Part shown: piece after piece, positions 896-7,694 of the stretch | Position numbering within the stretch: position 1 is the first letter of the stretch | Layout of the letters: every line of letters starts with the position of its first letter | Assembly (NCBI GenBank): GCA_048938895.1 | Contig: JBHLLU010000096.1 | Coordinates: forward strand, 1 to 11,019 | DNA length: 11,019 nt | Origin: Promethearchaeota archaeon | GTDB taxonomy: Archaea; Asgardarchaeota; Lokiarchaeia; Sigyniarchaeales; SOKP01 | Reading direction: 5' to 3' | The notes under the pieces: generated by a model | Seen by the model: the letters and a program-made list of their open reading frames with translations, nothing else | The model's database searches: none | Told to the model about the DNA's origin: nothing | Translations under genes and position numbers: made by a program

Positions 896-1510
896 ATGAT
901 AATAAATTTTTATCCTCCCTCACTTTATAATTTTCTATGGTATATAAGGTCCAATTCCATAGGTAATAGAATTTTGGATTGTGGTGCGGGAGGTTCTGAT
1001 CCTAAGCTTGCTTTTTTTAAAGAAAATGGATTCGAAGTATACGGAATTGATATTTCAGAAGATCAAATTAAGGGAGCTATTGAATATTCTGAAAGAAACA
1101 ATGTTAAACTAAATATAATTAAAGGAGACATGAGAAAAATACCATATAATTCAGATTTTTTTGATTACATCTATTCTTATAACTCAATATTTCATTTAAG
1201 CAAAAAAGATAGTGGAATTGCTGTAATTGAAATGCATCGTGTACTTAAAAAAAATGGATTATGTTATCTAAATTTTCTCTCTGTTGATGATAAATGGTCA
1301 AAAGAAGGAGATGAAATCAATCCTGGAGAACTTATTACCAAAGAAGGTGATAAAGAGTATTTTCACAGCTATTATGATGATGATGAACCTGATATCTATT
1401 TTAAGGAAAATTTTGAAATTATCTATAAGGAGAAAACACAGATAAAAATTGGTAGATATTTCAATACTGGTCGTAGCTGCATTCTTGAATATATTGCAAG
1501 AAAGAAATAA
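896..1510 (+). CDS. Class I SAM-dependent methyltransferase
   Basis: Motif I ILDCGAGG, plus VYGIDIS, KGDMRKIPY, FDYIYS, SIFH and EMHRVLKKNG. Confidence 0.9.
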   Translation: MIINFYPPSLYNFLWYIRSNSIGNRILDCGAGGSDPKLAFFKENGFEVYGIDISEDQIKGAIEYSERNNVKLNIIKGDMRKIPYNSDFFDYIYSYNSIFHLSKKDSGIAVIEMHRVLKKNGLCYLNFLSVDDKWSKEGDEINPGELITKEGDKEYFHSYYDDDEPDIYFKENFEIIYKEKTQIKIGRYFNTGRSCILEYIARKK

Positions 1511-3551: not shown

Positions 3552-3625
3552 TTTCTTATCAGAAAGAAGTAAGTAAAATATTAAAACCAGAATAAAAAAT
3601 TAGAAATAAAATTTAAAAAAAAAAT

Positions 3626-3715
3626 CTATCTATTAAATAATCGAGGATTGTATCCTTCATTAAAAACCTTCAATTCGGCTTTTTCCCTTACGGATAAGGC
3701 TTTATTTTTTCTCAT
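3626..3715 (-). CDS. Putative 29-aa basic small protein (MRKNKALSVREKAELKVFNEGYNPRLFNR)
   Basis: Manual translation ATG(3715) to TAG(3626). It is GC-richer than its flanks, has an A-rich leader with AAGGT and a TATA-like TTAAATATA upstream, and a long T tract right after the stop. Confidence 0.5.
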   Translation of the reverse strand: MRKNKALSVREKAELKVFNEGYNPRLFNR

Positions 3716-4001
3716 TTTTTTTTTACCTTTTTTTTGTTGTTTTTATTATATTTAATTTAGATAAACTATTATATTTAGTTTCATTCTATAAACTTCAGGC
3801 GAAGTTCGAATACTTAAGAAAGCAAAGTAAGAAAGAATGTATTAAAGGTATGAGGGTATTTATGATGTAAAAATAGGAAAAACTTTGTAGTTTAAATAGT
3901 TCTGATAAAAGTTGTGTTTAATCTACTGATATTATACCCCTAATTAAAGAAGGTAATCTTTTCATTAGTATAGTCTGCTTTAGAATCAACAAATTTTAAT
4001 A

Positions 4002-4086
4002 AGGTTGCACCTGTCAACACTCGCAAATATACGAAAATCACTTTCCAAGAGACAAAAATCCAGGGTGCTTGACAGGGGCAGAACCT
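4002..4086 (-). ncRNA. Putative structured ncRNA, copy A (terminal stem plus Sm-site-like GAUUUUUG core)
   Basis: Minus strand reads AGGUUCUGCCCCUGUCAAGCAC-CCUGGAUUUUUGUCUCUUGG-AAAGUGAUUU-UCGUAUAUUUGCGA-GUGUUGACAGGUGCAACCU. The 5' and 3' ends form a long bulged stem. An internal hairpin has a U-G wobble that favours this strand. 29/32 nt identical to 7515-7546. Confidence 0.6.
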
Positions 4087-4106
4087 ACTTTTTGTATAGA
4101 GGAGAG

Positions 4107-4114
4107 TTTAAAAA
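4107..4114 (-). promoter_or_regulatory. TATA-like box (TTTTTAAA) for ncRNA copy A
   Basis: Ends 20 nt upstream of the stem start at 4086 and has an A-rich BRE-like stretch further upstream. This spacing fits an archaeal promoter. Confidence 0.45.
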
Positions 4115-4226
4115 GTACTTTTTATTTTCGAGTCTTCAAATTAAAATTTTAAATTAATTAAAGTAAGTAACTGGCATGAATCCCAAAAAGGAGAATAAAA
4201 CTAATTTTTTCCCCTAATTAATTCAA

Positions 4227-4280
4227 TGTGTATTCATGATTTTTTCAGAGATTAGGCTGCTCTAATAACATGAATACGTA
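4227..4280 (+). other. Intergenic nested stem-loop
   Basis: TGTGTATTCATG (4227-4238) pairs with CATGAATACGTA (4269-4280), 12 bp including two G-U wobbles. It encloses AUUUUUUC and the hairpin ATTAG/CTAAT. Confidence 0.45.
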
Positions 4281-4507
4281 AAAATATCCCCTTATTGAGT
4301 TATCATGCTCAATTACTTGAGTGGTTACACAAAAATAAGGTTTAAAATAACGTTAGGGATTGAAGGTTTTGTAATTTTATTCATTTTGGAAAAGATTCTA
4401 ACGACTAATTCATAAGGTTACAGTTATTAATTCAAATTAATCTAAAATAAAAATAATACCTAATTAAATTAAGAATGGTCTTTTAAATAGGATAAAATGA
4501 GTGAATA

Positions 4508-4952: not shown

Positions 4953-5672
4953 TCATTTCCTCTTTATAACTTTTATTAAAATTGGAATAAATAATGCAAC
5001 TACCGTGATGATGACGGCTGCTGAGATAATTAAGACAAGATTACCAGGGTTATCTTTAGATTTGATTATAGTTAAGCTTGATATTATCTCATTATTATGC
5101 TTTATTACTTCATTAACTAATATCCCTTTTTTATTATACGTGAGGATGGCTTGATCGTTTCCAATATCTATTATAATAGTATTGTCACTCACATTTGCAG
5201 ACCATAGAGTATAACTTTCAATGAACACTTTAACTATATTTATATCCACAGGATCATCTGGGATAATAAAATATCCTCCATAACCATGTAATAATAGATT
5301 ATTCATGCTGTCATCGAATTTAAAGAATTGATCAGTCTTATTATAAAGCAAACATAGCTGATTTTGGAATTCTAAATTATCAACATTCATTACTACATAG
5401 GTACTCGTGTTGACATTATACTTGCTGACGGATACATTAGCACCTAATGCTCGGATTATTTCTTCATATTGATATAATTTTACGAATTCTACTTTAATTT
5501 TATATGATTGAGGCGCGAAGTTATCTTCCCAATCATATTCTATGAATCCTTCTTCATCTATCGGGAGTGAGCAACCACCAAGTTTAAAACCAGCAAATAC
5601 TATGTTAATACAACTAGCAAAAGCTAAAAGAAATATTAAGATATTCTTGAGTATATGGAATTTTTCTTTCAT
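4953..5672 (-). CDS. Hypothetical secreted, C-terminally membrane-anchored protein
   Basis: Likely start is ATG at 5672 (MKEKFHILKNILIFLLAFA...), giving a signal-peptide-like N-terminus. C-terminal TM helix followed by a basic tail (KVIKRK). The ORF track's start at 5696 is a TTG. Confidence 0.75.
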   Translation of the reverse strand: MKEKFHILKNILIFLLAFASCINIVFAGFKLGGCSLPIDEEGFIEYDWEDNFAPQSYKIKVEFVKLYQYEEIIRALGANVSVSKYNVNTSTYVVMNVDNLEFQNQLCLLYNKTDQFFKFDDSMNNLLLHGYGGYFIIPDDPVDINIVKVFIESYTLWSANVSDNTIIIDIGNDQAILTYNKKGILVNEVIKHNNEIISSLTIIKSKDNPGNLVLIISAAVIITVVALFIPILIKVIKRK

Positions 5673-5891: not shown

Positions 5892-6488
5892 ATGAGATTT
5901 AATTTAAGATTATTTAGAGATTGGAAAAGAAGATTCTCCCTAAAGAAAAAAAGAATAGTTTTTAAACCTCCTTTTAACTATGATTACACATTTAAGGTAT
6001 TATTATTTGGAGAAACTGGAGCAGGTAAGACGGGATTAGCACAAAGGTATTGTTATGATATTTTTGATCCGTCAGAAAAGTTAACAATAGGCGTAGATTT
6101 TTACGTTAAAGCGATAGAAAAGAATGGAAAAAAGGTTAAGTTACAAATTTGGGATATTTCTGGTGAGGATCAATTCCGATTTCTTTTTCCGAGTTATTGT
6201 CTTGGAGCTAATGCTGCTATACTCATTTTTGATATTACTAAATCCAAGACTCTACACATTATGTCCCAATGGATTGAAATAATAAGAGAAAATGCGGGTG
6301 ATATCCCAATAATCTTAATTGGAACGAAATTAGATCTTGAAGAATTTCGTGAATTGAACAGAGATGAAATATTTGAAATAACGAAAAAATTTAAATTATC
6401 AAGTTATAATGAAATTTCAACTAAAACAGGTGAAAACGTAGTAAGTACATTCGATGTGCTTACTGATTTATTAATTAACAATCTGTAG
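5892..6488 (+). CDS. Rab-like small GTPase (Ras superfamily, eukaryotic signature protein)
   Basis: G1 GETGAGKT, G2/RabF1 TIGVDF, RabF2 KLQIW, G3 WDISGE, RabF4-like YCLGA, RabF5-like LIFDIT, G4 TKLD, G5 STK. No C-terminal prenylation cysteines. Confidence 0.92.
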   Translation: MRFNLRLFRDWKRRFSLKKKRIVFKPPFNYDYTFKVLLFGETGAGKTGLAQRYCYDIFDPSEKLTIGVDFYVKAIEKNGKKVKLQIWDISGEDQFRFLFPSYCLGANAAILIFDITKSKTLHIMSQWIEIIRENAGDIPIILIGTKLDLEEFRELNRDEIFEITKKFKLSSYNEISTKTGENVVSTFDVLTDLLINNL

Positions 6489-7487: not shown

Positions 7488-7508
7488 GGAAAATAATAAC
7501 TTCTAGTT

Positions 7509-7624
7509 ATGATTCCTGTCTATCACCCTGGATTTTTGTCTTTTGGTAGTGTTAGCAATAACACTCTTGAAACTAACCCTAAACTATTTTAGCTTCTTTT
7601 TTGAAGCCGATTGACGGGAATCAT
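7509..7624 (+). ncRNA. Putative structured ncRNA, copy B
   Basis: ATGATTCCTGTC (7509-7520) pairs with GACGGGAATCAT (7613-7624), with one U-G wobble. Core CACCCTGGATTTTTGTCT is identical to copy A. Internal hairpins are AGTGTTA-GCAA-TAACACT (GNRA loop, 7548-7565) and GCTTC-T6-GAAGC (7592-7607). It lies between convergent genes. Confidence 0.62.
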
Positions 7625-7694
7625 TCTATATCCTAAACAAAATTATATTATAATAATTAGATTTAGATGGAGGTTTATACACTATTTAATACAT

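Follow-up and report, generated by a model that had tools for sequence, protein, structure and literature searches.

Two loci in an 11,019-nucleotide (nt) stretch of a Promethearchaeota archaeon genome (assembly GCA_048938895.1, contig JBHLLU010000096.1; hereafter the window) are almost certainly, on the comparative evidence set out below, genes of a single, strongly conserved family of small structured RNAs. The family is genuine and apparently undescribed, being absent from Rfam, strongly supported by covariation and present in nearly every genome of one family of Lokiarchaeia. Its members, ~90-130 nt in size, are built of three helices (P1, P2 and P3) and two junctions, of which J1/2 holds an invariant 20-mer, CCUGGAUUUUUGUCUUUUGG. 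The architecture and the 20-mer are apparently new, and the general kind to which they belong, a small structured RNA uniting a protein platform with a pairing module, is already known. No closer relatives of eukaryotes are known than the Asgard archaea, whose small RNAs are almost undescribed; a full-text literature search found no description of an Asgard small RNA family.

The reading favoured here, to which we would assign a probability of about 0.4, is that of a stand-alone, trans-acting ribonucleoprotein (RNP) small RNA, in which J1/2 would be docked to a protein, with an Sm-like archaeal protein (SmAP) as the leading candidate, and J2/3 would act as an anti-Shine-Dalgarno element.

Evidence for a small structured RNA family

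The initial annotation had reported that a 12-mer, GGATTTTTGTCT, is identical at both loci, here called copy A and copy B, and this is indeed the case (positions 7530-7541 on the plus strand and 4061-4050 on the minus strand). The identity extends to a 15-mer, CCTGGATTTTTGTCT (7527-7541, plus strand; 4064-4050, minus strand), lying within 32 nt repeated in inverted orientation (4045-4076 and 7515-7546) with 91% complementarity, the two copies thus being 91% identical as RNA. Across both strands of the 4.65-Mb genome the 12-mer occurs exactly four times, twice in the window and once each on contigs C61 and C137, and every occurrence lies in a copy of the same RNA, so that the identity between copies reflects homology. 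A covariance model, R1, was built from 65 copies from the genus, with P1, P2 and P3 as helices and the core unpaired; its structure was set by hand because RNAalifold missed P2 and P3 on a MAFFT alignment, in which the register of P3 is shifted between subtypes. The model recovers five copies in the organism's own genome, namely the four with the 12-mer and one that is cut by a contig end (C163:57487-57572, locus L113 of genome G000). This fifth copy has a variant core, CCUGAAAUUUUGUCUUUUGG, which is among the few natural changes within the A-U5-G stretch.

The helices are supported by an alignment of 63 copies from ten genera (A3), in which compensatory changes occur in all 24 modelled pairs (P1 13/13, P2 6/6, P3 5/5), bearing out the earlier proposal that both loci encode structured RNA. 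Paired cells amount to 90.8% compared with 59.5% in shuffles, none of the 500 shuffles reaching the observed value, and slid partners leave only 29-45% of cells paired. These pair counts lean towards the model structure because the alignment was fitted to R1, although the margin is still large. G-U or U-G cells number 101 as against 27 A-C or C-A cells, an excess that marks the GGAUUUUUG-carrying strand as the folded RNA; the strand named in the initial annotation is thus very probably the RNA strand, judging from this substitution pattern.

The borders of conservation are sharp. Among 28 orthologues of the main subtype, conservation starts abruptly at an AUG before P1 and stops at a CC(C)UUU tail, and the DNA beyond is unalignable. 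The conserved flanks read AAA[AC]N-AUG immediately before P1 and N-CC(C)-UUU immediately after it (7502-7511 and 7625-7631 for copy A, which has no oligo-U tail), and their A and U runs pair together in some folds. An oligo-U tail is compatible with archaeal termination. A TATA-like promoter signal at a fixed distance was not found in the A-rich, unalignable upstream DNA, where only AAA[AC]N-ATG is conserved. Compensated helices, a strand-specific G-U excess and sharp borders are together the generic signature of a structured non-coding RNA gene, and the family shows all three.

At a broader scale, R1 matches 123 of 131 genomes of the organism's own family in an order-level sample, covering 12 of its 13 genera, and one of 19 genomes in sister families. 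In this sample there are 1-18 matches per genome: most genomes have 1-7, whereas G124 has 12-13 and G137 has 18. A class-level sample gave 119 of 126 genomes of the own family against one of 24 from six sister families of the same class, the lone sister-family match sitting on a 1.8-kb contig. Scanning 185,579 species genomes for an exact word gave at least 119 loci, the first 100 of which were all matched by R1. Among the 80 matches listed, nearly all are titled Promethearchaeota (of the kingdom Promethearchaeati), Promethearchaeia or uncultured archaeon, with a few other Asgard labels and three bacterial ones; these titles bear out the initial annotation's assignment of the organism to the Asgard archaea. 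Of the three bacterial-labelled loci, two reach no more than 29-33 bits; the remaining one, under a Patescibacteria title (L280), is full-length at 84.9 bits, and its contig is most likely a mis-binned Lokiarchaeial one. As far as these genomes indicate, the RNA family is restricted to one family of Lokiarchaeia.

A cmscan search with all 4,227 models of Rfam 15, at E-values up to 10, gave no match at either window copy, and the main subtype returned nothing credible (best E 0.55, with no small nuclear RNA, snRNA, among the matches). Readings as a C/D-box, H/ACA, kink-turn (K-turn), bulge-helix-bulge (BHB) or tRNA-like element were dropped, the boxes being absent by eye and ARAGORN reporting no tRNA. 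Elsewhere in the window, two sub-threshold matches to C/D-box models, SNORD108 (5282-5349, minus strand, 26.3 bits, E 0.18) and sR2 (1343-1394, plus strand, 22 bits, E 0.22), both lie inside open reading frames (ORFs) and are probably due to chance.

Table 1. Predicted anatomy of the two RNA copies in the window
Feature	Positions	Strand	Remarks
Copy A, whole small RNA gene (lineage-specific paralogue)	7507-7631	+	Model R1 99.1 bits, E 4e-21; fold z-score -5.15 against shuffles
Copy A, P1 5' strand	7509-7524	+	Pairs with 7609-7624; one U-U mismatch, 7521/7612
Copy A, P1 3' strand	7609-7624	+	Predicted fold
Copy A, invariant 20-nt core CCUGGAUUUUUGUCUUUUGG in junction J1/2	7527-7546	+	Sm-like AUUUUUG at 7532-7538
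Copy A, P2 hairpin	7548-7565	+	AGUGUUA / UAACACU, loop GCAA
Copy A, junction J2/3	7566-7591	+	Predicted single-stranded; reads UAACCCUAAAC; without the CCUCC of the main subtype
Copy A, P3 hairpin	7592-7607	+	GCUUC / GAAGC, loop U6
Copy B, shortened paralogue	3997-4084	-	Model R1 50.3 bits, E 8.6e-9; P1, core and one hairpin
Copy B, core CCUGGAUUUUUGUCUCUUGG	4045-4064	-	Single U-to-C change after GUCU
Copy B, P1 5' strand	4065-4085	-	Pairs with 4003-4020
Copy B, P1 3' strand	4003-4020	-	Predicted fold
Copy B, sole internal hairpin	4021-4034	-	UCGUA / UGCGA, loop UAUU

Copy A folds as a closed three-helix junction, and copy B has neither a separate P2 nor a J2/3 (Table 1); in both, the Sm-like motif lies inside the terminal stem, as had been claimed. 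Full-length relatives of copy A occur in just two of 50 other genomes of the genus, and no orthologue of copy B was found in these 50 genomes apart from two short partial matches. Since relatives are so rare in the genus, the window copies are not ancestral members of the family: they are young or degenerate paralogues, in which P1 and the core have been kept and the putative effector region has been changed (A) or is absent (B). A further variant of the fold, with a fourth helix in the form of an extra hairpin between P2 and J2/3, occurs in copies of genera g26 (L173, L176, L183) and g21 (L395).

The invariant core and its candidate partners

Because copies found through the core cannot test its conservation, a core-free query was used: the 3' part of the C-type RNA was searched by BLAST against 120 other genomes of the family, and the upstream DNA was read at the resulting 89 loci. 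The exact 20-mer CCUGGAUUUUUGUCUUUUGG stands at 83 of them; three more carry one mismatch, always outside AU5G, one carries three (GCCGGAAUUUUGUCUUUUGG), one is cut by a contig end and one is a weak, probably spurious match. A-U5-G is kept at 86 of the 89 loci. In 86 copies the core is represented by four distinct 20-mers, compared with 66 in the 20 nt upstream and 48 in the 20 nt downstream, and in the most divergent genera, where P1, P2, J2/3 and P3 have all changed, CUGGAUUUUUGUCUUUUGG is still present. The check on core invariance suggested by the initial annotation, run in this way without the core in the query, thus finds it essentially invariant. Rare variants comprise GGAAUUUUG, CCUGAAUUUUUG, U for G after U5, GUUU for GUCU and UUUUAG for UUUUGG; no compensation of these was found, which argues that the core has no partner inside the RNA. 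The core is among the most rigidly conserved 20-mers that could be expected in a non-ribosomal RNA, and it offers a concrete bait for a partner, be it a SmAP, another protein or ribosomal RNA (rRNA).

The AU5G site lies in J1/2, between P1 and P2, and is predicted to be half open and half weakly paired; its very invariance prevents a covariation test. ViennaRNA folding of 104 homologues assigns a mini-hairpin, GGAU/GUCU, a probability of 0.69-0.76 and leaves the four residues of its UUUU loop unpaired at a probability of at least 0.95. The weak bracket suggested earlier is thus present as a thermodynamic prediction, in which the UUUU loop is exposed and the A, the first U and the G lie within the hairpin.

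In the favoured reading, the long terminal helix P1, which closes the RNA, would protect both its ends; hairpins P2 and P3 spring from P1, connected by the two single-stranded junctions. J1/2, with its invariant CCUGGAUUUUUGUCUUUUGG, would be the place where a conserved protein docks in a sequence-specific manner. That J1/2 is a protein platform of some kind is somewhat more likely than not; that the partner is a SmAP, which would bind U tracts on the surface of its ring as Hfq does, is a tentative suggestion. A generic Sm-like archaeal protein may bind the RNA. In Sulfolobus acidocaldarius, RNAs carrying U-rich motifs come down together with SmAP1 and SmAP2 in co-precipitation (PMC12817955). 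An inventory of Sm/Lsm genes, likewise suggested at the outset, identified four LSM-domain ORFs in the genome (87, 93, 102 and 138 amino acids, aa), three of which show an Sm1 Asn and an Sm2 Arg-Gly at what we take to be the motif positions. The gene for the 102-aa protein (contig C123, L322) adjoins a small zinc-ribbon gene resembling that of ribosomal protein L37e, a pairing familiar from other archaea. Should the partner prove to be a SmAP, the core would rank as the first high-affinity site of Sm type to be defined in any Asgard archaeon, and the recognition of structured RNAs by archaeal Sm rings could then be tested directly in vitro.

J2/3 would be the variable effector. This junction is pyrimidine-rich: 115 of 227 distinct copies have CCUCC, a word found in 12 of 288 control windows, and 77 of the 227 have CCUCCUCCC, neither window copy being among them. 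In the ancestral, syntenic subtype, CCUCCUCCC would pair with purine-rich, Shine-Dalgarno-like leaders of messenger RNAs (mRNAs). The organism's own 16S rRNA has the 3' end GGAUCACCUCCU, and GGAG/GAGG motifs peak at -15 to -11 before long ORFs. The alphaproteobacterial cuckoo/CcsR small RNAs are defined by this nine-letter word, CCUCCUCCC, read there as an anti-Shine-Dalgarno motif, one member being bound by Hfq, an Sm-like protein (PMC4615179, PMC8034643). An anti-Shine-Dalgarno seed in J2/3 is nevertheless somewhat doubtful, and the idea is limited to the main subtype, because the window copies and those of genus g21 lack CCUCC. One orthologue, L076 (G002:C12), has a ~30-nt insertion that splits the CCUCC...CCCCCUAU junction.

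Several observations weigh against this composite reading. On the protein side, the distribution of LSM genes gives no co-distribution signal, because the 93-aa and 138-aa paralogues, the two of the four on which this comparison rests, occur class-wide: among 61 genomes the former is found in 60 and the latter in 57, including all families without the RNA. As P1 joins both RNA ends, J1/2 could not thread through a pre-formed ring, and only Hfq-like surface binding or assembly of the ring around the strand would be expected to work. The A, the first U and the G of AU5G are placed by the folding model in a weak 4-bp hairpin, and the 20 invariant nt exceed what an Sm ring needs; conservation of this degree would be explained at least as well by base pairing to an RNA that is itself invariant, or by a protein interface of larger size. 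On the effector side, motifs resembling Shine-Dalgarno sequences precede just ~7-8% of crudely called ORFs; CCUCC is absent from copy A and the whole of J2/3 from copy B, and in genus g21 J2/3 is merely CU-rich. A scan for 9-mer targets of J2/3, in a genome without gene annotation, gave 290 scattered matches, many of them inside coding sequence.

The alternative that survives best, unlikely as it is, would have J1/2 pair with an invariant cellular RNA (pre-rRNA, rRNA or transfer RNA, tRNA), the molecule being a guide or chaperone in ribosome biogenesis or modification, similar to small nucleolar RNAs (snoRNAs) and devoid of C/D or H/ACA boxes. Invariance of twenty nt across ten genera or more is what RNA-RNA interfaces typically show, and the core's want of an internal partner would fit as well. 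Against this, a genome-wide search for core-complementary sites (runs of at least 11 pairs) gave nothing that exceeded shuffled queries except the RNA genes' own antisense strand, in an assembly from which rRNA is nearly absent: it contains ~165 nt of the 16S 3' end, and two single-contig relatives likewise have no assembled rRNA.

Two further proposals are slightly less probable. In one, J1/2 nucleates an Sm/LSM-ring RNP, with A-U5-G held by a SmAP ring and the neighbouring bases read by the ring or a second protein; if true, a prokaryotic RNP would share the principle of Sm-class small nuclear ribonucleoproteins (snRNPs), though arisen within one Lokiarchaeial family and having no role in splicing. 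The other casts the RNA as a 16S decoy: P2 and a CCUCC-bearing J2/3 would mimic helix 45 and the anti-Shine-Dalgarno tail at the 3' end of the rRNA and would thereby titrate a factor of small-subunit maturation or initiation in place of acting on mRNAs. At its end the organism's 16S rRNA has CUGCGGCUGGAUCACCUCCU and then a U-rich spacer, the main subtype presents a hairpin followed by CUGAUUUCGCCCUCCUCCCCCUAUUUU, and CUGGAU is common to the core and the 16S tail. This likeness, however, is one of short words; CCUCC is lacking in half of the copies, including both in the window, and the 20-nt core would be left unexplained.

The initial annotation had gone further, matching the core to the eukaryotic Sm-binding site and suggesting that the two copies could be Sm-class, snRNA-like RNAs bearing on the origin of snRNPs. 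A heptameric Sm ring would sit on AUUUUUG between two stems, in an Asgard forerunner of the snRNP. The position of A-U5-G between P1 and P2, its retention in the core-free loci and the four LSM ORFs speak for such a view, which is nonetheless quite improbable. The full consensus, RAU4-6GR, is not matched: the core reads G-A-U5-G-U, and, as first noted, U comes next wherever the G is retained. Without its final purine, the consensus (RAU4-6G) turns up 8,164 times in this genome of 31% G+C, and the bare 8-mer GAUUUUUG 603 times; Sm-site likeness alone consequently carries little information. The invariant block spans 20 nt, compared with an Sm footprint of ~7 nt, no snRNA, U7, Y RNA or other Rfam model is matched by the window copies at E-values up to 10, and the closed P1 would force the ring to assemble around the strand. 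Occurrence in a single Lokiarchaeial family, among the families of the class sampled with the model, falls short of the broad conservation expected of an snRNP ancestor, the traced LSM paralogues do not track the RNA, and we know of no spliceosomal targets in these genomes. The eukaryote-like, Sm-class reading is therefore not supported; it amounts to a low-information resemblance, and the link to snRNP origin is weak.

Genomic context of the copies

Both window copies lie in gene-free intervals and point away from each other. Copy A is located between two convergent genes, and copy B, in a 957-bp gap (3552-4507), has an aldehyde:ferredoxin oxidoreductase gene on one side and a cupin gene on the other, being antisense to each. 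Besides copy B, this unusually long gap includes inverted repeats rich in A/T (3595-3625 and 3714-3744). The genes beside the copies are of the housekeeping kind, with unrelated functions: aldehyde:ferredoxin oxidoreductase, cupin, a Ras-family GTPase, a protein with CBM96 and a zinc ribbon, radical SAM, thioesterase and MarR. The small GTPase gene, of the Ras/Roc family, is found at 5892-6488 on the plus strand (Pfam Ras, E 1e-38); Ras-family small GTPase genes are typical of Asgard genomes.

This setting bears on whether the RNA could be a cis element, that is, a leader, a riboswitch-like regulator or a terminator of adjoining genes. At 35 of 49 loci, some of which duplicate one place, the main (C) subtype does stand 3' of a 156-aa ORF, with a radical-SAM gene following in the same orientation after 180-350 nt, and an oligo-U tract follows P1. 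In the C-subtype locus L109 (G000 C61:6266-6396) and ~35 orthologous loci, which make up the best-conserved subtype, the radical-SAM neighbour has an HMPTM-type zinc ribbon and the 156-aa ORF, itself conserved, has no assigned family. Yet copy A sits between convergent genes, copy B is antisense to both its neighbours and the D subtype, which stays beside a 281-aa ORF, is convergent with that conserved neighbour. With neighbour functions unrelated and the oligo-U tract separating the RNA from the downstream gene, action in cis has little to recommend it.

Still less credible is a selfish repeat or DNA-level element (a miniature inverted-repeat transposable element, MITE, a transposon end or an attachment site), with the window copies as the inverted ends of a 3.4-kb element. 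Their inverted arrangement, 3.4 kb apart, and the 1-18 matches per genome are what such an element might leave. No transposase, integrase, reverse transcriptase or Cas gene, however, was found between or beside the copies, similarity between copies of the same genome mostly stops at the RNA borders, the synteny of orthologues is kept across species, and the excess of G-U over A-C reveals that selection acts on a single RNA strand. Similarity between some copies of G124 does run on into the flanks, for 220-700 nt; a few larger duplications around copies, in two genera other than the organism's own, contained no mobile-element ORF recognisable by eye.

A short ORF, running from the conserved AUG before P1 through the core and encoding a small peptide, can be rejected: although an ATG precedes P1 in most copies and, in subtypes C and D, opens a frame of 14 codons, it lies 17, 18, 20, 21 or 22 nt from the core depending on the copy, a spacing that is not constant modulo 3, so that no frame through the core is kept; moreover, AAG, TTG or AGG replaces the ATG in some copies, and the compensatory changes follow RNA pairing and not codons.

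Comparison with known systems

Among RNAs of comparable build, the Ro60-bound Y RNAs share a size of ~100 nt, a long terminal stem formed by the 5' and 3' ends and a large, pyrimidine-rich internal region. A Y RNA/Ro60 identity was rejected, as neither a TROVE/Ro60 domain (PF05731) in the organism's own genome (98.7% completeness) nor a match to the Rfam Y RNA models was found.

Sm-class snRNAs, U7 included (Rfam U1, U2, U4, U5, U7 and related models), resemble the Lokiarchaeial RNA in having an A-U5-G tract between two helices, and the genome does encode proteins of the LSM fold. The Lokiarchaeial RNA differs from them in lacking a purine after the G, in its 20-nt block, in having both ends within the terminal helix, in matching none of these models and in its limitation to one family. 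The SmAP-associated small RNAs of the crenarchaeon S. acidocaldarius, studied by RIP-seq (PMC12817955), are bound through U-rich sequence, SmAP1 preferring 3' ends, and the Lokiarchaeial RNA has an internal U5/U4 as well as a 3' oligo-U. The motifs described there are degenerate and U-rich, whereas the candidate site considered here is an invariant 20-mer.

The best functional analogy is offered by the cuckoo/CcsR RNAs (ar14, RF02344). According to PMC4615179 and PMC8034643, these are also multicopy, carry CCUCCUCCC in an unpaired region, have highly variable stems and include one Hfq-bound member; in the Lokiarchaeial family, CCUCCUCCC is found in an unpaired region in the 77 copies counted above. 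The differences are nevertheless substantial. In the cuckoo RNAs the motif stands in the loops of 2-4 tandem hairpins, whereas in the Lokiarchaeial family it stands in a three-helix junction closed by P1; tandem hairpins are not found here, cuckoo RNAs are not known to have a counterpart of the invariant 20-mer, and the window copies lack CCUCCUCCC altogether. The ar14 model scores just 12.7 bits, against a gathering score of 58.8, and the likeness is consequently one of analogy and not of homology. Should the CCUCCUCCC junction act on Shine-Dalgarno leaders, it would represent a striking convergence between the small RNAs of one Lokiarchaeial family and the cuckoo/CcsR small RNAs of bacteria.

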